Assembly (NCBI GenBank): GCA_963928415.1
Contig: CAWVEX010000045.1
Span: 587-64,586, forward strand
Reading direction: 5' to 3'
Length of the DNA stretch: 64,000 bases
Source: Bacillota bacterium
GTDB taxonomy: Bacteria; Bacillota; Clostridia; TANB77; CAG-508
Position 1 is the first letter of the stretch. Each line of letters begins with the position of its first letter. Both the position numbers and the translations under genes were made by a program. Below the pieces are notes generated by a model. The model worked only from the letters and a program-made list of their open reading frames with translations, ran no database searches and was not told the origin of the DNA. Shown here piece after piece: positions 15,979 to 46,243 of the stretch.

Positions 15979-16335
15979 ATGAAAAAGTATTCTAATGAAA
16001 AAGGTGTAACATTAATTGTTTTAGCAATAACAATAGTAGTTCTATCTATAATTGCAGGTGTGGTAATATCATTTAATTATAATGATAATGCAGTTAAAAA
16101 TATAGCTGAAGACAAAAAAGAAGAAACTGAAAAAATGCTTATTTTAGAAAGTATAAAATTAAACCTTGTAGAAAATCCACCTGAAAATTATGAGAATTTA
16201 ATCAGCTATTTAAATAATTATGGAAAAATTGAAAATGAAGATGATGAAAATAACGCTATTTTAATTACTAATCAAGGAAATTATGAAATATATGTAAAAG
16301 ATATTTGGAATATAAATAAGCAAAATATAGATTAA
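15979..16335 (+). CDS. Type IV pilin/pseudopilin-like protein. It has a prepilin-type N-terminus, EKG|VTLIVLAITIVVL, in which valine replaces the usual glutamate at position +5.
   Basis: A short basic leader is followed by Gly and a hydrophobic helix. 118 aa; RBS GAAGGAGG. It is the first gene of the Tad-like operon. Confidence 0.5.
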   Translation: MKKYSNEKGVTLIVLAITIVVLSIIAGVVISFNYNDNAVKNIAEDKKEETEKMLILESIKLNLVENPPENYENLISYLNNYGKIENEDDENNAILITNQGNYEIYVKDIWNINKQNID

Positions 16336-16465: not shown

Positions 16466-17401
16466 ATGGCAACAATGAATCCATTGGAAAGAAAAGCAAG
16501 GAATTCGTTTATAAAAGGAGCAATTTTAGCTGGATTAATAGGATTAATTTTTATAATCATTTTAGGAATAATAATTATGAGAATGAGAGGAGAAGAGCAA
16601 GCAAGATTAGATGCTCAAAAAAATGTATATGTATTAAGAGGAGCTGTACAATCAGGTACAGTGTTAACTCAAGATATGTTTACAACTGTTGGAGCAGATG
16701 CTAATGTAGCACCTAGTGATGCTTTAACAGCAAGTGTATACAATACACTAGCTTTCGATGAAGAAGGTAATCCATTAGAGATTGTTGCAAAAATAGATAT
16801 AGCAGCAAATACAATAGTAACAGCTAGTATGATAACAACTTCAGATAATATAAATACTGATGATGTAAGAGAAGAAGAATATAATATGATATCACTTCCA
16901 GCAGATTTAGAAACTGGAGATACTGTAGATGTAAGATTAAGAATGCCTGATGGAACTAACTATATAGTTGTATCTAAAAAGAAAGTTACAGTATTAGATA
17001 ATGCAGGTATTCCATCTGTAAATACAATTTCATTAGAACTTTCAGAAGGAGAAATTCTTATGATGAGTAATGCAATTGTAGAAGCATATATGATGGAAGG
17101 AAGCAGATTATATTTAACAAGATATGTTGAACCTGGTATGCAAGCAGGAGCAATTACAACTTATGTACCAAATGGAGAAGTTCAAAACTTAATTGCTCAA
17201 AATCCAAATATAGTTAATGAAGCTAAACAAGAATTAATTAACAGAATAAATAATTATGCAGGATTAAACAGAACAAATATAAATGATGAGTTAAATACTA
17301 TAGATCCTGAAGATAGAACAGATGCTGTAACTAGTGGTACTACAACAGAAAATAGTGATGCACAAGATGCTAGACAAAGTTACTTAGATTCTATGCAATA
17401 A
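16466..17401 (+). CDS. CpaB/RcpC-like Flp pilus assembly protein (N-terminal TM plus an SAF-like domain).
   Basis: A TM segment is followed by VYVLRGAVQSGTVLTQDMFTTV, an SAF-like motif. Position and size match CpaB. Confidence 0.55.
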   Translation: MATMNPLERKARNSFIKGAILAGLIGLIFIIILGIIIMRMRGEEQARLDAQKNVYVLRGAVQSGTVLTQDMFTTVGADANVAPSDALTASVYNTLAFDEEGNPLEIVAKIDIAANTIVTASMITTSDNINTDDVREEEYNMISLPADLETGDTVDVRLRMPDGTNYIVVSKKKVTVLDNAGIPSVNTISLELSEGEILMMSNAIVEAYMMEGSRLYLTRYVEPGMQAGAITTYVPNGEVQNLIAQNPNIVNEAKQELINRINNYAGLNRTNINDELNTIDPEDRTDAVTSGTTTENSDAQDARQSYLDSMQ

Positions 17402-17448
17402 AATTTAAAAAGTAATCCAAATGATTAAAAAAATGAAAGGAACTTACA

Positions 17449-18129
17449 GTGGAACAAATAGGTTTTGTTGGAGTAAATGACAAAAAAGATTTTTTGCTAA
17501 ACATAGCAAAAGTTATATCAAAATTAAATAAAAGTGTATTAATTGTTGATAGTACAGTTATGCAAAGACTAAGATACTTAATACCAAAGGTGTCATCTAC
17601 TCCTACATATGTAAGTGAGTATGACGGAGTAGATGTAGCCGTTGGATTTATGAATCTAATGCAAATAAGTTCATATTTAGGTATGCCAAACTTGAATTAT
17701 GATTATGTACTAATAGATACAGATAATCCTCAGACATTTAATTCTTTTATGGTACAAAACTCAAAAAGAAATTTCTTTTGCACATCATATGATGAATTTG
17801 AACTTCAAAGAAGTTTGGAGATACTAGGAACATTGAGAACACAAATTAATTTAACTAAAGTTATAATATCATCTGATTTAAATAATAAACATGATGAATA
17901 TTTAAATCATTTATTAGAAAATTATCCAGTAGCATGGAGCAAAGAAATTATAGAAATAGCTGATACTGATGAAGATAGAAATGCAACACTTACAAATCAG
18001 CTTACTAAACAAATCAGCATTAAGAATTATTCATCGATTTATAAGGATGGATTAGAATATTTAATATCACTGATATTAGAGGGGCTTATACCTCAAGGTG
18101 ATATTAGAAGAATTATTAGGAGAAAGTAG
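17449..18129 (+). CDS. Degenerate MinD/ParA-fold protein (pseudo-ATPase, lacking a Walker A P-loop).
   Basis: IGFVGVNDKKDFLLNIAKVISKLNKSVLIVD aligns to the ParA N-terminus, but the KGGxGKT P-loop is replaced. The Walker-B-like YDYVLIDTD is retained. GTG start with an RBS. Confidence 0.5.
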   Translation: MEQIGFVGVNDKKDFLLNIAKVISKLNKSVLIVDSTVMQRLRYLIPKVSSTPTYVSEYDGVDVAVGFMNLMQISSYLGMPNLNYDYVLIDTDNPQTFNSFMVQNSKRNFFCTSYDEFELQRSLEILGTLRTQINLTKVIISSDLNNKHDEYLNHLLENYPVAWSKEIIEIADTDEDRNATLTNQLTKQISIKNYSSIYKDGLEYLISLILEGLIPQGDIRRIIRRK

Positions 18130-18141
18130 AAAGGTATAAAA

Positions 18142-38341: not shown

Positions 38342-38438
38342 AAAATATTATATATTTATATTACGAACTGTATACATTTTTATTACAGCAATTGACAAAA
38401 ATCGACTTTAATATTACAATAATATTAGGGTGAAGATT

Positions 38439-39665
38439 ATGGTAAGAAAGTCAAAAATGTGGATATATATATTAGTATCAATAATAGCCATAGCATTAGT
38501 TATAGCTATTATTTTTGGTATATATATAACAAAAAATATTTCCTATGCATCAGAATCACAAAATAAAACTGTTGCAGTAGAAATACCAATAGCGCCACAA
38601 GATAAAAGTAAGAAAATAAATATAGAAGAAATAGTAGCAAATAATACAAAAGTTCAAAAACTTGAGGTACTAGAAGAGCAAGAAATAGATGTGGAATTTA
38701 CTACTCAATATATTGAAAATAGTTCTCTTGCAAAAGGAAAAATTCAAGTTCTTCAAGAAGGTATAGATGGAAAGCAAAATGCAGTATTAAAAAATATTTA
38801 TGAAGGTGATAAACTAATATCTTCAACTCAAGTTTCTTCAAGAATAACAAAAGCATCGATAGATAAAATAGTACAAGTAGGAACTGCTGCCTTTTCAAAC
38901 AATTATGTTCCAGTAGTAGGAGACGAACTTAAAGCAACATCAATAACTCTTGCAATCAGATTAAATCCAGATGAAAATTCAGAAAAAGTAGTTACAATAA
39001 ACAAGGGCGATAAAGTAATATTAAAAGCAAAACAAGGTGATTGGTACTATGTGTCATATGATAACTATTTGGGCTGGGCAAAATCAGATAGCTTAGAATA
39101 TGTAGCCCCAAATGGCACAGGTGACGGAGACGAAAACAATATTCAATATACAAAGGAACAATTGACTCAAGACCTAGGATTTAGCATGCTTTTAAATAAG
39201 CCAAGTGGACTTACTCTAGACCAGTTTAAACAAATCTTAGAAAATGACTCAAATGATAAAAATAATGTATTTAAAGATAATGCACAATATTTCTATTATG
39301 TAGAACAACAGTATAATATAAATGGAATATTTGTTGCAGCAGTAGCAATACACGAAAGTGGATGGGGAACATCAGCTATATCTAAAAATAAAAAGAACTT
39401 ATTTGGATATGGAGCATATGATAGGGACCCATCAGGAAGTGCATATACATTCCAATCATATGCAGAAGGAATAGACCTAGTATCTAGAGTATTTGTAAAA
39501 TATTACTTAAATCCACCAGGAACACCTATATATGGAGGTGAAACTGCGACAGGTACATATTTCGAAGGAGCAACTTTAACTGCGGTAAATACAAGATATG
39601 CAAGTGATAAAAACTGGGCAAATGCAGTATTTAAATGGATGACTTATTTATATAATAAATTGTAA
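38439..39665 (+). CDS. Cell-wall hydrolase: G5 domain, SH3b domain and a GH73 N-acetylglucosaminidase domain.
   Basis: The glucosaminidase motif (AIHESGWGTS...NLFGYGAYD) is present. The start codon is uncertain (GTG at 38430 or ATG at 38439). Confidence 0.8.
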   Translation: MVRKSKMWIYILVSIIAIALVIAIIFGIYITKNISYASESQNKTVAVEIPIAPQDKSKKINIEEIVANNTKVQKLEVLEEQEIDVEFTTQYIENSSLAKGKIQVLQEGIDGKQNAVLKNIYEGDKLISSTQVSSRITKASIDKIVQVGTAAFSNNYVPVVGDELKATSITLAIRLNPDENSEKVVTINKGDKVILKAKQGDWYYVSYDNYLGWAKSDSLEYVAPNGTGDGDENNIQYTKEQLTQDLGFSMLLNKPSGLTLDQFKQILENDSNDKNNVFKDNAQYFYYVEQQYNINGIFVAAVAIHESGWGTSAISKNKKNLFGYGAYDRDPSGSAYTFQSYAEGIDLVSRVFVKYYLNPPGTPIYGGETATGTYFEGATLTAVNTRYASDKNWANAVFKWMTYLYNKL

Positions 39666-39831
39666 TAAATAATTGTAAGTTTTAAATAAAAATGCAATTA
39701 TTTATTACAAAATTTGCTTGCTATTTTAATAATATTAGTGTATTATTAATATATGTAAAAAAGTAGAAAACATTGGATGAATTAAATAGTTAATTATAAA
39801 AATAAAAAGTAAGAAGGAAGGGAGCAAATTC

Positions 39832-40242
39832 ATGAGAAAAATACTTATAGTTTTTGCAATCATAATAAGCATAATGTGTATAAATTGTGTATATGCTGCA
39901 AATACTAACAATAGTGGAGAAATAATTTCAGAAGAAACAAAAAGCCAATTAGTAGAAATAAAAGATAAAGAACTAAAATCTATAGAAGACTATAATGAGG
40001 CTTATGGTAGTAGTACATATGGAATAGTTGCATACATACTAGATAAAGTTAGAGTTTATAGTATTCCAGTAGCATTTTTAGGAATTGCAATAGCAGCTAT
40101 ATACCAATATGTTATAGGTATTAGAAAACTAGATGTAAGAGATAAAGGCTTTGGAGCGATGATTGGCATAGTAACTATGCTTATTATATGCCAAGTATTG
40201 CCACTTATTTTTGCTATAGTAGTAAAAGGTTGGAGGGGTTAA
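39832..40242 (+). CDS. Small secreted protein with a cleavable signal peptide and two C-terminal TM segments (VirB2/TrbC-pilin-like topology).
   Basis: Signal peptide MRKILIVFAIIISIMCINCVYA|AN, followed by two hydrophobic helices separated by RKLDVRDKGFG. It lies 4 bp upstream of the next gene. Confidence 0.4.
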   Translation: MRKILIVFAIIISIMCINCVYAANTNNSGEIISEETKSQLVEIKDKELKSIEDYNEAYGSSTYGIVAYILDKVRVYSIPVAFLGIAIAAIYQYVIGIRKLDVRDKGFGAMIGIVTMLIICQVLPLIFAIVVKGWRG

Positions 40243-40245
40243 CAA

Positions 40246-42813
40246 ATGAAAGTTTTATTTGCAGTAAGTAATGATAATGTATCATCATCTATAATCAAGA
40301 AATATCAAGAAAAATTTAAAGAGATTATAACAAGTAAAAATGTGTATTACTTTAATGCAATAATAAAAGAATTACAAAAAGATAAAACATATGATGCAGT
40401 TGTTATTGGCGAAGATTTAGAGCCAATATCTAATAATAATTATGATACAATTGATAAATTTATATTTGATAAATTAGATAATATAAGTGATGAAGCATAT
40501 AAGGCTACAGGTGAAGATATTCCTATCATTTTAATTTGTTCAGACAGAAGAACAAAATCTGATGAACTATTAATTAAATTATTTGGAATTGGAATTTATA
40601 ATGCTTTATTAGGTAATGACAGAAACATAGATATGGTTTGTAATTTGATAAATAAGCCTAGAAGTAAAAAAGAAGCAAAAGCTTATTACAGAGTTGATTC
40701 AGAAGATGTTAATTATAAGCCTGAAAATGAATCTGAGGTTAGTGAAACTGAAATAAAAAACATATTAAATCATTATAAAAAAATAGGTAATAATGAGAAA
40801 AAATGTGTAGAAAGTTTCGATAGTATTGCAAGTCAATACAATGATACTCAATTAAGAATAATAATAAAATTTTTACCTAATAGTGTTAAAGCAATACTTG
40901 AAAAAAAATCAGTAAGATATCAAAAACTTGTTACTGGTGGAACTGTTTTAACAAATGGTAAATATACACCATACAGTCCAATGCAAAACGGAGTAAAAAA
41001 GCAGGATACTGAATTCTTAACTAAAGATATTGAAAAGCCAAACTTAACAAAGCCTGTAATTATTCCATCAACTATGAATATAAATGTACCAAATATGAAA
41101 GCAGCAACAAATGTATCTCAAAATGCACCACAAAATAATATTGTTAATCAAGTACAAAATTCAGTTGAAGAACAACAAGAACCAGTTCAAGTAAAAAGAA
41201 GAGGAAGACCAAGAAAAATAAATGTAGGGTCAAATTCTAATGAAAATAATATAGTTGAAACCAATCCAATATTTAATCAAGATCAAATTAGCTTGCAAGA
41301 AAGTCTAGCTAATGCTAATAACCAAACAATGGCAAATATAAATCAATTACAAGAAAATAATACAAATATGCAAGCACCAGAAGTAGTACCAGTTAAAAGA
41401 GGTAGAGGTAGACCTAAAAAGGCAAGTAATGTTGGTGAAGATTTAGAAAAAAATAATACAGCTTTATTGAAAAATAATAATACAGCATTAGCAAATCAAA
41501 ATTCTTTAAATTTATTTGAACTAGCAAATGACCAAAGCAATATTCAAGATGCTAATATAACTACAGGTCTAAATCAAAATAATAATTTAATAGATAGCAA
41601 TATGGATATTAATAATGCTCAAAATAATATTGACTCTAGCGTAAGCGATAGCATAAATTTATTTGATATGGCAGATGACAATACTCAATATGCCCAAAAT
41701 TCAAATCCATATGATGCGGTAAATAATAATATAAATCCTTATGATATTGCAAGTTCATTTAATGACAATTCTTATAATACAAATATTAATCATAATCAAT
41801 ATGATTCAAATCCATATGATTTAAGTAATAATAATTTTGATAATATAGGAACAACACAAGAAATATCGAGAATTGGTAAGGAAAATAATATAGTTCCAAG
41901 TAATTTTGTAGCTCAAAATAAAATAGTAGCTTTTGTTGGGACCAGTAAAAATGGTACTTCATTTATAGTAAACAACCTTGCTGAATTATTAGCTCAAAAA
42001 GGCATAAAAACAGCAATATTAGATTTGACAAAAAATAAAAACTCATATTATATGTTTACAGATAATGATCAAAGATTAATGCAAATAGCAACACAAAGCA
42101 TAAAAAATCTTGAAAGAGGTATTGCACAAGGTGTAGAAGTTAATAAAAATCTAACTGTCTATACTGCATTACCTGACGAATTAGAAGAACCAGAAAATTT
42201 TGAAGCTATATTGCAGACATTAGATAATAATTATTCTGCAATATTAATGGATTGTGATTTTGAAACTAATATTAATTACTTTATAAAGTCAACAGAAATA
42301 TATTTAGTTCAATCCATGGATGCACTTACAATACAGCCATTAACTCAATTTTTAAGTGAATTAAAATTAAAAAATGCTTTGGATGAAACAAAATTAAGAG
42401 TAATTATAAATAAAGAAATGAAGATGAAAATATTAAATGACAAAATGATTTTAGGTGGTATGGCTAAATATAATGAACCATCAATGACTCTTCAAAGGGA
42501 TTTATTTAATCCAGCAACTATTAGATATGTTACAATACCTTTTGAAATGCAAACATATGCAAGATACTTAGAAGCAATAGCACTTTGTCAAATTTCTCTA
42601 AGTGGATATTCGGAGGCATTTTTATCAAGCCTAGAAAAATTAGCTAATATGGTTTATCCATTAGTATCTGGAGGCAATTATACAAATTATTCTCCAAATT
42701 ACAAAAAAGCTGAAAAAAGAGGATTCTTTAAGGGAAGAAATAAAAATCAACCACCAACACAATTTTCTTCAGGAGTTAATGACACATTAAATAAAATGAG
42801 AACGAACTATTAA
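40246..42813 (+). CDS. TadZ/CpaE-like protein: an N-terminal receiver-like domain, an Asn/Gln-rich linker with two AT-hooks, and a C-terminal MinD/ParA-like domain with a deviant P-loop.
   Basis: A REC-like fold (KVLFAVSND...YDAVVIGEDL...IPIILICS), two AT-hooks (RRGRPRK and RGRGRPKK), and a MinD-like C-terminus (KIVAFVGTSKNGTS...ILMDCD). Confidence 0.5.
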   Translation: MKVLFAVSNDNVSSSIIKKYQEKFKEIITSKNVYYFNAIIKELQKDKTYDAVVIGEDLEPISNNNYDTIDKFIFDKLDNISDEAYKATGEDIPIILICSDRRTKSDELLIKLFGIGIYNALLGNDRNIDMVCNLINKPRSKKEAKAYYRVDSEDVNYKPENESEVSETEIKNILNHYKKIGNNEKKCVESFDSIASQYNDTQLRIIIKFLPNSVKAILEKKSVRYQKLVTGGTVLTNGKYTPYSPMQNGVKKQDTEFLTKDIEKPNLTKPVIIPSTMNINVPNMKAATNVSQNAPQNNIVNQVQNSVEEQQEPVQVKRRGRPRKINVGSNSNENNIVETNPIFNQDQISLQESLANANNQTMANINQLQENNTNMQAPEVVPVKRGRGRPKKASNVGEDLEKNNTALLKNNNTALANQNSLNLFELANDQSNIQDANITTGLNQNNNLIDSNMDINNAQNNIDSSVSDSINLFDMADDNTQYAQNSNPYDAVNNNINPYDIASSFNDNSYNTNINHNQYDSNPYDLSNNNFDNIGTTQEISRIGKENNIVPSNFVAQNKIVAFVGTSKNGTSFIVNNLAELLAQKGIKTAILDLTKNKNSYYMFTDNDQRLMQIATQSIKNLERGIAQGVEVNKNLTVYTALPDELEEPENFEAILQTLDNNYSAILMDCDFETNINYFIKSTEIYLVQSMDALTIQPLTQFLSELKLKNALDETKLRVIINKEMKMKILNDKMILGGMAKYNEPSMTLQRDLFNPATIRYVTIPFEMQTYARYLEAIALCQISLSGYSEAFLSSLEKLANMVYPLVSGGNYTNYSPNYKKAEKRGFFKGRNKNQPPTQFSSGVNDTLNKMRTNY

Positions 42814-42896
42814 TTTAAAAAATAATAGTTGCAACAAATGTCATCAATATGATATTCTAAAATGCAACAAAAGAATAAGTTAAAGAGGTGATATAG

Positions 42897-43988
42897 GTGA
42901 TAATAGCTGTAATAGCAATATTAGTTATTATTGTTTTAACATTAATTATATACAACTATTCAGTACACAAAAAAATAGAGACATATAGTAATTTAAATCA
43001 AAGAATAACTAGTTTAAATGTTTTACAAGAATTTATGAAAACACTTGGTGAAACATCAAGCATACAGGAAAAACTTGAAAATATAAATGACATTTTAATA
43101 AGTAAATATTCAATTAAGTATTCAACAATAGTAGTTTTTGATGGTGCTGAATATGTTGTAAAAGCCTCTAATGTTGATAAAAAACACTGGGATGCATTAA
43201 AAAATTTGCAGAATGATCCAGTGTTTGGAGATAGTATAAAAACAGCAACACCTAAATATGTTACAGTAGAAAATGAAAATGAAAAATTACCATATCAAAA
43301 AATGGAATTTGGTAGAGCAAAATGTGCAATGTTTTTCCCTTTATATGTAGACAATGTATATATTGGATATTGGATAATAGAAGGAAGTCAACCACACGAG
43401 TTTGACCATATAGATACAACAATATTAGAAGTAGTTAGAAACAATATTGTAACTATTTTAAAAACAGTTGAAAATCAAGCAACTATTGAAAATATAGTGC
43501 GTGATGATTTATATTCAGGATTAAAATCTGCTGAATATTTATATGGTGAAGGCAAAAAAATAATAGATAAATATACAACATCAGCTATATGTCTTTTCAA
43601 AATAGTTAATCTTCCGGATATAAATACACAAATAAGTAGAAAAACTGGAGATGTTACTATTACAGAAGTATCTAATTTTGTAAAAAAGAATTTAGCTCAG
43701 GAATATGTATTTGTAAGATATATGGGACCTAAATTTGCAATTGTTTTTTCAGGTGCAGATAAAGATGGAGTATATAATTTTATGACTGATTTAAAAAGCA
43801 AAATAGAAACTTTAGATATTATGGCTCAACCTGATTATATCCATAGTGATGAAGAAGATGTAATTGTCAGTCCAAAAATAAGAGTAGTGATATCTACATA
43901 TTATAAGGGAACAGCTTTAGATGGAGCTTTCAAAAAATTAGAAGAGTACATAGATTCATCAAATGAAAATACAGTGCAAGAGATATAA
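42897..43988 (+). CDS. Membrane-anchored protein with a degenerate GGDEF domain (probably an inactive cyclase and possible c-di-GMP effector).
   Basis: Colinear with GGDEF (DDLYSGLKSAEY ... RYMGPKFAIVF in place of RYGGEEF). GTG start with an RBS GAGGTGA. Confidence 0.55.
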   Translation: MIIAVIAILVIIVLTLIIYNYSVHKKIETYSNLNQRITSLNVLQEFMKTLGETSSIQEKLENINDILISKYSIKYSTIVVFDGAEYVVKASNVDKKHWDALKNLQNDPVFGDSIKTATPKYVTVENENEKLPYQKMEFGRAKCAMFFPLYVDNVYIGYWIIEGSQPHEFDHIDTTILEVVRNNIVTILKTVENQATIENIVRDDLYSGLKSAEYLYGEGKKIIDKYTTSAICLFKIVNLPDINTQISRKTGDVTITEVSNFVKKNLAQEYVFVRYMGPKFAIVFSGADKDGVYNFMTDLKSKIETLDIMAQPDYIHSDEEDVIVSPKIRVVISTYYKGTALDGAFKKLEEYIDSSNENTVQEI

Positions 43989-44027: not shown

Positions 44028-44276
44028 ATGAATATGGATGAAACAATGAGATTTGACGTAGAAAAAGAGCAAAATGCAAGAACTAAAGAAATATTAAAAG
44101 AAGTTTATGATGCTTTAGAAGAAAAAGGATATAATCCAATTAATCAAATCGTTGGTTATATTTTATCTGGAGATCCAACATATATTACAAGTCATAAAGG
44201 TGCTAGAAATCTTATTAGACAAGTAGAAAGAGATGAACTTCTTGAAAAAATGGTTAAAGAATATATAGATAAATAA
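44028..44276 (+). CDS. IreB-family regulatory phosphoprotein (UPF0297).
   Basis: [39 protein letters not shown] matches the family. Confidence 0.6.
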
Positions 44277-44358
44277 TAAAAAACATCTTATTCAGTAATG
44301 AATAAGATGTTTAAAATATGTTTATAAATAAATAATAAAATTATGATAAGGAAAATAT

Positions 44359-44775
44359 ATGAGTAGAATTTTAGGAATTGATTATGGATTAACTAGAACA
44401 GGAATTGCAATTACAGATGAATTAGGTATAACAGCACAAGGATTAGAAACAATAACATCTAATGGAAATGATAAGATTATCTTAAAAAGATTAGCAGAGA
44501 TTGTAGAAAAGTATAATATAGAAACATTTGTAATAGGTAATCCACTTAATATGGATGGAACTAAAAGTCAAAGGTCTATTGAAACAGATGGATTTATACA
44601 TAAATTAAAATCTAGATTTAATAAAATAAATATTGTATCAGTAGATGAAAGACTTACTACAGTTGAAGCACATAAAACAATGAATGTTTTAAATATTAAT
44701 AATAAAAAGAAAAAACAAATAGTAGATACAATTGCAGCTGTATACATTTTGGAAAGCTATATTAATAGAAAGTAA
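44359..44775 (+). CDS. ruvX: Putative pre-16S rRNA nuclease / Holliday-junction-resolvase-like YqgF.
   Basis: MSRILGIDYGLTRTGIAITD...; 138 aa. Confidence 0.9.
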   Translation: MSRILGIDYGLTRTGIAITDELGITAQGLETITSNGNDKIILKRLAEIVEKYNIETFVIGNPLNMDGTKSQRSIETDGFIHKLKSRFNKINIVSVDERLTTVEAHKTMNVLNINNKKKKQIVDTIAAVYILESYINRK

Positions 44776-44885: not shown

Positions 44886-45452
44886 ATGGCAACAGTATAT
44901 TCAGCAGGAGATTTTAGAAATGGAACAACATTCGAAATGGATGGAAATGTTTATAGAGTAGTAGAATTTCAACACGTAAAACCAGGAAAGGGTTCAGCAT
45001 TTGTTAGAACAAAAATTAAGAATGTTATAACTGGTAGTGTTTTAGAAAAAACATTTAACCCATCAGAAAAATTTCCAGCAGCAGAAATTGAAAAGAAAGA
45101 AATGCAATATTTATATGAAGATGGTGGATTATATTACTTTATGGACAATGAAACATATGAACAAATTCCTTTAAACAAGGAACAATTAGGTGATAGCTTA
45201 AAATTTTTAAAAGAAAATATGAATGTAAAAGTATTATCATATAAAGGAAAAGTATTTTCAATAGAACCACCTATATTTGTTGAGTTAGAAGTTAAATATA
45301 CAGAACCAGGCTTCTCAGGAAATACTGCAACAACATCAGGAAAACCTGCAACTCTAGAAAACGGATATGAACTAACAGTTCCAATGTTTGTTAATATTGG
45401 AGATATGATTAGAGTTGACACAAGAACTGGTGAATATATGGAAAGAATTTAG
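44886..45452 (+). CDS. efp: Elongation factor P.
   Basis: EF-P similarity including the [12 protein letters not shown] loop. Confidence 0.95.
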
Positions 45453-45499
45453 TTCTATAAAATTAAAACTTATTGTAATAATTTTTGAAAGGAGATTCT

Positions 45500-46243
45500 A
45501 TGGTAGATCCTAAAAGTACATTTTCAAAAATATTATCTGATTTAGAAAGAGAAATAAAAGATAAACATGATTTGGAAATTGCAAAAAATAAGTTACTTGA
45601 AGCAAGTATGATGTTTATAGATATTACTAATAGAGTAGCTCAAAGCAATAGTCAATATGATATTTTATCTAATAAAATAGATGCAATGCAAAAATCTTTA
45701 AGAAAGATAGAAGAAGATATATACATTGATGAAAATGAGGATAATGAAGAATCAGAATATAATTTGGGAGACCAAATGCATGATAACGATATTAATGAAG
45801 ATGAATTCGAATTTGAAATAAAATGCCCATATTGTAATTATGAATTTGTTGTAGGTCAAGATGCGGATTTAAAGGAAGAAATAGAATGTCCAAAATGTCA
45901 TAAAGAAATAGAACTTGATTGGGATGATTATTGCGATGGTGAATGTGAACACTGCAAAAGTATTTGCTATGATGGAGATTTAGAAAAGGATCTAAATAAT
46001 GAACAAAATAAATCTTTAGAAGATATAAAAAATCTTTCGGAAGAATTACTATCTAATTCAATTAAAGAAGATGAAGAAAAATATAATGCAAATGAGAATA
46101 TATCTAATAATAATTCTCAAAACAAAGATAGTAATGCAAAAAATAATAATTCTAATTTAAATCATAAAAAGATAGATGAACCAAATAGCATTAATCAAAA
46201 TGGTTCAAATAATCAAGTAAACGAAAATGAAGATGATATGTAG
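45500..46243 (+). CDS. Zinc-ribbon-containing acidic hypothetical protein.
   Basis: Cys motifs CPYC...CPKC...CEHC. An RBS AAAGGAG lies 7 nt before the ATG at 45500. Confidence 0.5.
   Translation: MVDPKSTFSKILSDLEREIKDKHDLEIAKNKLLEASMMFIDITNRVAQSNSQYDILSNKIDAMQKSLRKIEEDIYIDENEDNEESEYNLGDQMHDNDINEDEFEFEIKCPYCNYEFVVGQDADLKEEIECPKCHKEIELDWDDYCDGECEHCKSICYDGDLEKDLNNEQNKSLEDIKNLSEELLSNSIKEDEEKYNANENISNNNSQNKDSNAKNNNSNLNHKKIDEPNSINQNGSNNQVNENEDDM

Follow-up and report, generated by a model that had tools for sequence, protein, structure and literature searches.

In the 64,000-nucleotide stretch analysed here (hereafter the window; positions 587 to 64,586 of contig CAWVEX010000045.1, forward strand, from the Bacillota bacterium assembly GCA_963928415.1), three consecutive genes of the forward strand form a conserved module around a protein with a MinD/ParA fold. 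These are small136 (39832-40242), an open reading frame (ORF) of 136 amino acids (aa); big855 (40246-42813), an ORF of 855 aa; and ggdef363 (42897-43988), an ORF of 363 aa with a GTG start. We tentatively propose that the big855 module is an ATP-independent scaffold that contacts both the nucleoid and the membrane and belongs to core cell organisation, and that it is not an accessory of a pilus. The cellular role is inferred, as are DNA binding, membrane binding, complex formation and the absence of ATPase activity.

The module is core and vertically inherited in the uncultured gut order TANB77 and in a few related lineages. The genome scan used one genome per GTDB species, and 80 loci from other species were kept for counts of gene order and motifs; the counts of orthologs given below refer to these loci.

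The MinD/ParA-like domain and the tail of big855

The C-terminal domain of big855 (aa ~545-823; 41878-42714, forward strand) was modelled by AlphaFold2 with a predicted local distance difference test score (pLDDT) of 72 and a predicted template modelling score (pTM) of 0.74, and the model presents a MinD/ParA fold of the SIMIBI class. The Foldseek search against the PDB returned 128 matches at E<=1e-3. The best match was MinD (4v02, E 3.9e-8, TM-score 0.52-0.68), followed by BcsQ (ranks 3, 6, 8 and 9), Soj (2bek and 1wcv) and FleN/FlhG, and the E-values of this top group ranged from 4e-8 to 1e-5. Thus big855 shares the SIMIBI fold with MinD, FlhG and FleN. It is ~540 residues longer than MinD, the difference being made up by an N-terminal domain and a linker with AT-hooks, and no PDB sequence was found with the profile of the C-terminal domain. 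Likewise, no NCBIfam match to big855 was obtained at E<=0.1, and the Pfam family CbiA stayed below threshold (16.7 bits, cut-off 25.4). An initial annotation of the window, made from the sequence, had described a MinD-like domain with a deviant P-loop, which is borne out at fold level only, by AlphaFold2 and Foldseek, with a degenerate P-loop in 80/80 orthologs.

The degenerate P-loop, FVGTSKNGTSF (aa 563-573; 41932-41964, forward strand), was located by the hhalign register against E. coli MinD, in which NNLAELLAQKGIKTAILDLT is aligned with AAIATGLAQKGKKTVVIDFD, with 45% identity over 20 aa that cover helix alpha1, strand beta2 and switch-I. In this register the signature lysine K11 of MinD corresponds to T566 and the catalytic lysine K16 to T571, while the Mg-binding Ser/Thr is kept. 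The pattern F[VIL]GTxKNG[TI]SF is present in all 80 orthologs; where MinD has GKGGVGKT, these proteins have GT[ST]KNGTS, with both lysines replaced in 80/80. A divergent clade of the family carries P-loops such as GTNKVGTS, GAPGIGTT and similar. Within the same domain, and on the forward strand, LDLT (42013-42030) resembles switch I and MDCD (42238-42267) resembles Walker B. In ParA and MinD proteins, ATP controls both surface-binding activities, towards the nucleoid and towards the membrane. With neither Walker-A lysine left, big855 has probably lost the switch by which ATP governs dimerisation and membrane binding, and it would be a MinD/ParA fold without its ATP switch, carrying both surface-binding activities in a fixed form.

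Hydropathy analysis indicated no transmembrane segment in big855, and such segments in both small136 and ggdef363. The C-terminal domain is followed by a basic motif, KRGFFKGR (42715-42738, forward strand), and then by an amphipathic helix, FSSGVNDTLNKMRTNY (42763-42810, forward strand), which is a candidate membrane-targeting sequence. Its motif, F[ST]xx[MVI]NxTLxxM[KR]xNY, was found in every sampled ortholog. The hydrophobic moment of the tail (median of 0.41 in the 80 orthologs; z = 2.1 against shuffled sequences) is similar to that of the E. coli MinD targeting sequence (0.45), and a low-confidence helix was predicted by AlphaFold2 at residues 298-309 of the domain model. In divergent members the C-terminus reads KKKGLF or RRGLFG, similar to the MinD tail. 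By this helix, big855 would bind the membrane.

The linker and its AT-hooks

The N- and C-terminal parts of big855 are joined by an Asn/Gln/Glu-rich linker (aa ~281-544; 41086-41877, forward strand), which is hypervariable in alignment A1 and presumed to be disordered from its composition and variability. Its limits could be set in 41 proteins, and its length in these ranged from 172 to 404 aa. Two AT-hooks lie in it: KRRGRPRK (aa 317-324; 41194-41217, forward strand), whose columns are invariant in A1, and KRGRGRPKK (aa 384-392; 41395-41421, forward strand), for which the Pfam AT_hook match is below threshold. Exactly two RGRP cores with basic flanks are present in 80/80 orthologs, inside a linker that otherwise varies strongly, and in other species they are mostly separated by 20-26 aa. 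The two motifs reported initially are both present and, like the P-loop and RYMGPKF, conserved well beyond what chance would give, but the second reads RGRPKK and not RGRPRK.

These AT-hooks would bind the minor groove of AT-rich DNA and, since the genome has 27% GC, their targets would correspond to nearly the whole nucleoid. The nucleoid is also the surface used by ParA and Soj, the latter being one of the top structural matches of big855. The means of contact would be different, given that ParA uses an ATP-dependent dimer surface and Noc a helix-turn-helix of the ParB fold, whereas big855 has AT-hooks of eukaryotic style and no parB or parS nearby. Noc, which both binds DNA and has an amphipathic helix for the membrane, is like big855 in function only. 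Neither minC/minE nor parB nor a flagellar partner, as expected around MinD and ParA proteins, lies in the vicinity; the neighbours are small136, ggdef363, IreB and RuvX.

The same linker contains two NLF[DE][LM] motifs (41503-41526 and 41650-41673). In 43/80 orthologs the pattern [ND]LF[DEGSNA][LMI] was counted 64 times, where shuffled sequences would give 0.125, and it always comes after the second AT-hook. The linker motif, xNLF[DE][LM], seems to resemble the beta-clamp-binding consensus QLxLF, and it might serve to bring in another protein, for example the sliding clamp of the replisome. Three NPYD repeats (41704-41820) were also observed in the linker; up to seven NPY repeats are found in close relatives (QNNPYN occurs six times in locus L004) and none in 70/80 orthologs. 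This array looks like a fast-evolving repeat.

In the divergent clade (proteins P0217, P0228, P0245 and P0255; loci L081-L085), the linker with AT-hooks is replaced by an EKR-rich, coiled-coil-like linker or by an S/G/Y-rich linker of low complexity, and the same gene neighbourhood is kept despite this replacement. The absence of AT-hooks from this clade places the conserved or ancestral function in the N- and C-terminal domains and in the partner proteins, which is a caveat for all the models considered here.

The putative partner proteins ggdef363 and small136

The product of ggdef363 begins with a single transmembrane helix (aa 1-25), followed by a conserved middle domain (aa ~40-190), weakly GAF-like (Pfam GAF_2, E 0.053), and by a domain of the GGDEF fold (aa ~195-340). 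The Pfam GGDEF match reached 24.4 bits, above the cut-off of 23.8, and profile A6 matched the PDB GGDEF domains with an E-value of 1.9e-9, with RYMGPKF aligned on RFGGEEF; a weak match to NCBIfam GdpS (E 0.0025) was far below its cut-off. The motif RYMGPKF (aa 274-280; 43716-43736, forward strand) stands in the place of R[YF]GGEEF, and the metal-binding D-x-D and the GH..GD positions are substituted in the A6 alignment. The protein is a true GGDEF homologue that, with these positions substituted, is catalytically dead and cannot be a cyclase. The form [FL][VI]RYMGPKF is present in 80/80 orthologs, and this invariance points to a constraint on a non-catalytic function.

The known receptors of cyclic di-GMP (c-di-GMP) with a degenerate GGDEF domain use an RxxD I-site, five residues upstream of the GGDEF position. 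No RxxD was found upstream of RYMGPKF in any of the 80 orthologs; the sequence there is ...NLAQEYVFVRYMGPKF in ggdef363, and the consensus reads NLSxEYIFVRYMGPKF. In the window, neither a c-di-GMP riboswitch nor an intact GG[DE]EF in ORFs >=150 aa was found, which is weak negative evidence. As judged from these motifs, ggdef363 is consistent neither with a cyclase nor with a c-di-GMP receptor of the canonical I-site type. Thus the degenerate GGDEF homologue described earlier is real, whereas its proposed role as a c-di-GMP receptor is unsupported. The GGDEF fold with a non-canonical motif is shared with GdpS, YybT/GdpP, PopA and PelD-type proteins; ggdef363 differs from these in its invariant RYMGPKF, the loss of the metal-binding Asp, the lack of RxxD, the single N-terminal transmembrane helix and the uncharacterised middle domain.

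For small136, hydropathy indicated a signal-like hydrophobic N-terminus (aa 1-25, ...VYA/AN) and, towards the C-terminus, a membrane hairpin made of a pair of hydrophobic segments (aa ~72-98 and 105-135), with a short extracytoplasmic stretch between the signal-like segment and the hairpin. The loop between the two helices is basic (RKLDxxDKG), and the protein ends in KGWRG. The core of the hairpin is invariant in alignment A5, and the basic loop nearly so, including the divergent loci L081 and L084. This protein had been taken as VirB2/TrbC-like, and a signal-like segment with two hydrophobic helices is indeed found in these pilins, a topology that is generic. The sequence signal is absent: in none of 14 members of the small136 family was TrbC/VirB2 or T4SS_pilin matched at E<=5, and the only recurrent match among them, to the membrane protein family Colicin_V, was below threshold. 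No Pfam, NCBIfam or relevant PDB profile match was obtained for small136, and its neighbours are housekeeping genes in all loci, with no secretion-system or conjugation genes nearby. Since there is neither a family match nor a secretion gene in the surroundings, the likeness to VirB2 is one of topology only.

The N-terminal region of big855

The conserved N-terminal region of big855 (aa 1-280; 40246-41085, forward strand; alignments A1, A2 and A4) comprises an alpha/beta part (aa ~1-150), in which VVIGEDLEP contains the invariant Glu56, and a helical sub-domain (aa ~165-230). Its identity is 68-89% among close relatives (A2) and 33-77% over a diverse set (A4). Among 1.84 billion proteins, 335 representative clusters matched this region, always at the N-terminus of the protein, and by this distribution the region is specific to its own family. 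One member, P0114, has first ~115 residues (ISEELEAFTNTQY...) that are markedly more divergent while the rest is typical, as in a recombinant or an assembly chimera.

This region had been described as an atypical receiver domain, which was not confirmed. Pfam, including Response_reg, gave no match to it in 29 diverse members, and the profile of the region had 0 matches at E<=10 against all PDB sequences. Comparison with a receiver-domain profile in hhalign gave a probability of 0.3%, and only the beta4-like IPIILICSD was aligned, with LPVLMVTAE of CheY. The AlphaFold2 model, from a shallow alignment, had a pLDDT of 48, too poor for the fold to be judged; it alternates strands and helices up to aa ~150, and aa 165-230 were modelled at ~80. 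Foldseek on this low-confidence model returned generic alpha/beta matches only, at E>=0.02, which were P-loop-like folds and a few receiver domains. The invariant Glu56 can be placed by eye on CheY Asp57...Pro61, at the receiver phospho-acceptor position, which is a lead and not evidence. In the scaffold proposed here, this family-specific domain may act as a head for interaction or localisation.

Distribution and gene neighbourhood

Relatives of big855 are encoded in at least 534 species genomes, all from uncultured gut Clostridia, including Clostridium sp. CAG:508, CAG:567 and Candidatus Merdicola. There are thousands of unnamed homologues, none with a Pfam annotation; neither Pfam nor NCBIfam has a model for the family, the sources searched give it no name, and the literature search found nothing on it. 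The gene order small136-big855-ggdef363-ireB-ruvX was observed wherever the contig extended far enough, with small136 in 79/80 loci, ggdef363 in 80/80, ireB in 78/80 and ruvX in 77/80, the missing ireB and ruvX genes being due to cut contigs. In the window, ireB is located at 44028-44276 (Pfam IreB, 1.9e-40) and ruvX at 44359-44775 (Pfam RuvX, 3.3e-41), both on the forward strand. The block ireB-ruvX-DUF1292 is usual in Firmicutes. Here DUF1292 comes next after ruvX in 60/70 loci, and in the lineage of the window (7 loci) this place is occupied by efp (44886-45452). The upstream neighbour is variable, being a gene for a G5-glucosaminidase in 39/69 loci and unrelated genes in the others; in the window, a gene encoding G5, SH3 and glucosaminidase domains (38430-39665, from Pfam) lies directly upstream of small136.

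The same gene block is kept in the metagenome contigs L081-L085, in which the identity of the N-terminal domain is only ~40-45%, and in the loci L086 and L087 from rabbit metagenome-assembled genomes. In L081-L083 the large gene was called as three ORFs, a split that probably stems from faulty assembly of the repeats or from frameshifts there. The product of ggdef363 is matched at 100% identity by a protein recorded on a contig of 1,555,319 bp (NCBI/ENA/Logan), which indicates that a closed or nearly closed genome of the organism is public.

The GC content is ~26% across the whole region, matching the flanks. This composition, together with the ribosomal-protein genes near related loci, places the module in the core genome and argues against a foreign insert; the phage and defence searches gave no matches of note. 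The intergenic region upstream of small136 (39666-39831) is AT-rich, has 166 nucleotides (nt) and is likely the promoter region of the module. In the promoter scan, shuffled sequence gave matches at least as often, and we therefore assign no specific promoter. A purine-rich ribosome-binding site read from the sequence, GAAGGAAGGGAG (39811-39825, forward strand), precedes small136, and that of big855, GGAGGGG, lies within the 3' end of small136. Only 3 nt (CAA) lie between the small136 stop codon and the big855 ATG, a spacing that is also implied by the match coordinates in most related loci; the first two genes are thus tightly coupled for translation, as had been noted, but with a gap of 3 and not 4 nt. 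Between ggdef363 and ireB there are 39 nt and no predicted terminator, so the module is probably co-transcribed with ireB and ruvX. A perfect hairpin with a 14-bp stem was observed between ireB and ruvX (44281-44312), with a terminator call on the minus strand only, and it might be an attenuator or a bidirectional terminator within the putative operon. After efp, a 252-aa Asn/Asp/Glu-rich protein is encoded (45485-46243, forward strand), with cysteine pairs of the CPYC...CPKC and CEHC types that resemble a zinc ribbon; it is kept in close relatives only (7 loci), without an assigned family.

These neighbours bear on a second explanation, which we regard as unlikely, namely that the module forms a complex of the BcsQ/BcsE/BcsF type that positions or gates an enzyme of the cell wall or of exopolysaccharide synthesis, for instance the upstream G5-SH3-glucosaminidase, and that it is tied to cell-wall homeostasis by IreB. 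The trio of a MinD-like protein, a degenerate GGDEF protein and a small membrane protein does parallel BcsQ, BcsE and BcsF/R, and complexes with BcsQ are found at ranks 3, 6, 8 and 9 of the Foldseek search. The hydrolase directly upstream in the window and in 39/69 loci, and IreB downstream in 78/80, also agree with an envelope function, but the hydrolase is absent from ~40% of the loci and no polysaccharide synthase is conserved nearby. BcsQ has an intact P-loop, and BcsE binds c-di-GMP via an RxGD I-site-like motif. Both features are absent here, as are the cellulose synthase genes, and the AT-hooks, which have no counterpart in the Bcs complex, would be left without a role.

A role in sporulation was also considered, in which the module would be a chromosome anchor or a scaffold of the forespore membrane, like RacA/DivIVA or SpoIVA/SpoVM, with the AT-hooks holding the chromosome at the membrane during asymmetric division. 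A SpoIVB-type peptidase and SpoVG are encoded in the window, and CotJA/B in locus L084, and an architecture with DNA binding and membrane binding, with small136 as a possible anchor, would suit such a role. Evidence for a sporulation-specific promoter is lacking, the module is placed among housekeeping genes (ireB, ruvX, efp and ribosomal-protein genes), and the divergent clade has no AT-hooks. Nothing separates a sporulation role from a vegetative one, or from the scaffold that we prefer, and we consider a function specific to sporulation very unlikely.

Relation to the Tad pilus cluster

TANB77 is an uncultured order of the human gut that has been linked to the response to cancer immunotherapy, and a pilus cluster of 12 genes has been published for it, with 927 CpaB, 928 TadZ-like, 929 CpaE-like, 930 TadA/CpaF, 931 a TadC/TadB fusion and 932-938 pilin-like (PMC11680825). 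The Tad-like operon of the window (16466-28727), with 12 ORFs of 311, 226, 279, 634, 691, 158, 186, 141, 151, 238, 173 and 654 aa, is this same cluster, with a gene-for-gene match of ORF sizes (PMC11680825, Table 1). The counterparts of the TadZ-like 928 and of the CpaE-like 929 are degenerate MinD-like genes at 17449-18129 and 18142-18981, respectively. A prepilin-like ORF of 118 aa starting with MKKYSNEKGVTLIVLAITIVVL... (15979-16335, forward strand) closely precedes the CpaB-like gene; it is not among the 12 published genes and could be an additional pilin.

In the initial annotation, small136, big855 and ggdef363 were suggested to be the missing positioning or regulatory module of this Tad-like machine, at a distance of 9 kb. 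The operon ends at 28727, so the distance is ~11 kb. The suggestion itself is unsupported, since the genes at 17449-18129 and 18142-18981 already provide TadZ-like and CpaE-like proteins, so that the pilus machine lacks no such component, and since the module is locked to ireB-ruvX. When five proteins of the Tad operon were used as queries, there were zero matches within +/-10 kb of the module in the 80 loci. The module is not a part of the published pilus cluster, and its link with Tad is weakened.

The corresponding explanation, in which big855 would be a localisation factor of the TadZ/CpaE type, small136 a pilin-like protein and ggdef363 a c-di-GMP input for the TANB77 Tad pilus, is in our view improbable. 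It draws on the architecture: as in TadZ/CpaE proteins such as TadZ of E. rectale (3fkq), which was matched at E 2.9e-5, big855 has an alpha/beta domain at the N-terminus and, after it, a domain of the MinD fold whose nucleotide site is non-canonical. The secondary structure of the N-terminal domain would be compatible with (beta-alpha)5, and Glu56 would fall by eye at the position of the phospho-acceptor Asp. Against this, TadZ is only at rank 46, after MinD, BcsQ, Soj and FleN, and no CpaE or TadZ match was found in NCBIfam or Pfam; the hhalign alignment to the TadZ-like ORF of the pilus cluster, co-linear with 24% identity over 120 columns, is insignificant. In addition, the two domains of big855 are split by an AT-hook linker of 170-400 aa, the receiver homology is undetectable, small136 has no TrbC/VirB2 signal and ggdef363 no I-site. 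As for distribution, the pilus cluster is present in 122/129 TANB77 species, two CAG-492 species being named as lacking it (sp900553225 and sp000434335) (PMC11680825), and the module occurs in at least 534 species, so that the two systems largely co-occur. Such co-occurrence inside one order is expected from shared ancestry alone. In the 80 other species, as judged within +/-10 kb from the five Tad queries, big855 is found outside a tad locus, not beside CpaB/RcpC or TadA/CpaF, and it is tied to ireB-ruvX with variable genes upstream.

Proposed role of the module

In the reading that we prefer, the ATP-independent scaffold, big855 would form a membrane complex with the coupled hairpin protein small136 and the membrane-anchored ggdef363, the latter serving as an adaptor or a sensor, as BcsE with BcsQ or FleQ with FleN. 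The most likely role of this complex would be the tethering or positioning of the nucleoid in relation to the membrane or to sites of envelope growth, in division-site placement or chromosome organisation, and possibly in sporulation.

Several observations weigh against this proposal. The family has no cultured member, and function is deduced from architecture alone. The Pfam AT_hook match reached 15.1 bits, below the cut-off of 17.4, and the divergent clade without AT-hooks implies that DNA binding is not universal in the family. A P-loop of the GxxxxG[T][ST] type might still bind nucleotide, and the N-terminal domain has no confident fold, with a pLDDT of 48 and nothing below 0.02 in Foldseek. 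Finally, the position beside ireB-ruvX may reflect history and not function.

The fold class of big855 is known and its architecture is new: a dead P-loop, AT-hooks, a targeting-like helix and a novel N-terminal domain are combined in one protein, and a dead GGDEF protein is encoded in the same fixed operon. A more far-reaching proposal, which we regard as rather doubtful, is that big855 founds a new class of ParA/MinD proteins, a hard-wired and nucleotide-independent tether between nucleoid and membrane that, with small136 and a dead-GGDEF adaptor, would serve in chromosome or division-site organisation in the TANB77 Clostridia, whose genomes are small (~1.55 Mb). In this proposal the module might take over what Min, Noc or Soj do canonically.

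The present analysis corrects an annotation as pilus accessories that these genes readily invite, and the module belongs to the small number of lineage-defining gene sets in TANB77 that are fully unannotated. Proteins of the ParA/MinD family position chromosomes, division sites, pili, flagella and organelles by ATP-cycled binding to, and release from, the nucleoid or the membrane. If the proposal is true, a widely conserved member without the Walker lysines, but with fixed elements for contact with DNA and membrane, would represent another use of this fold.

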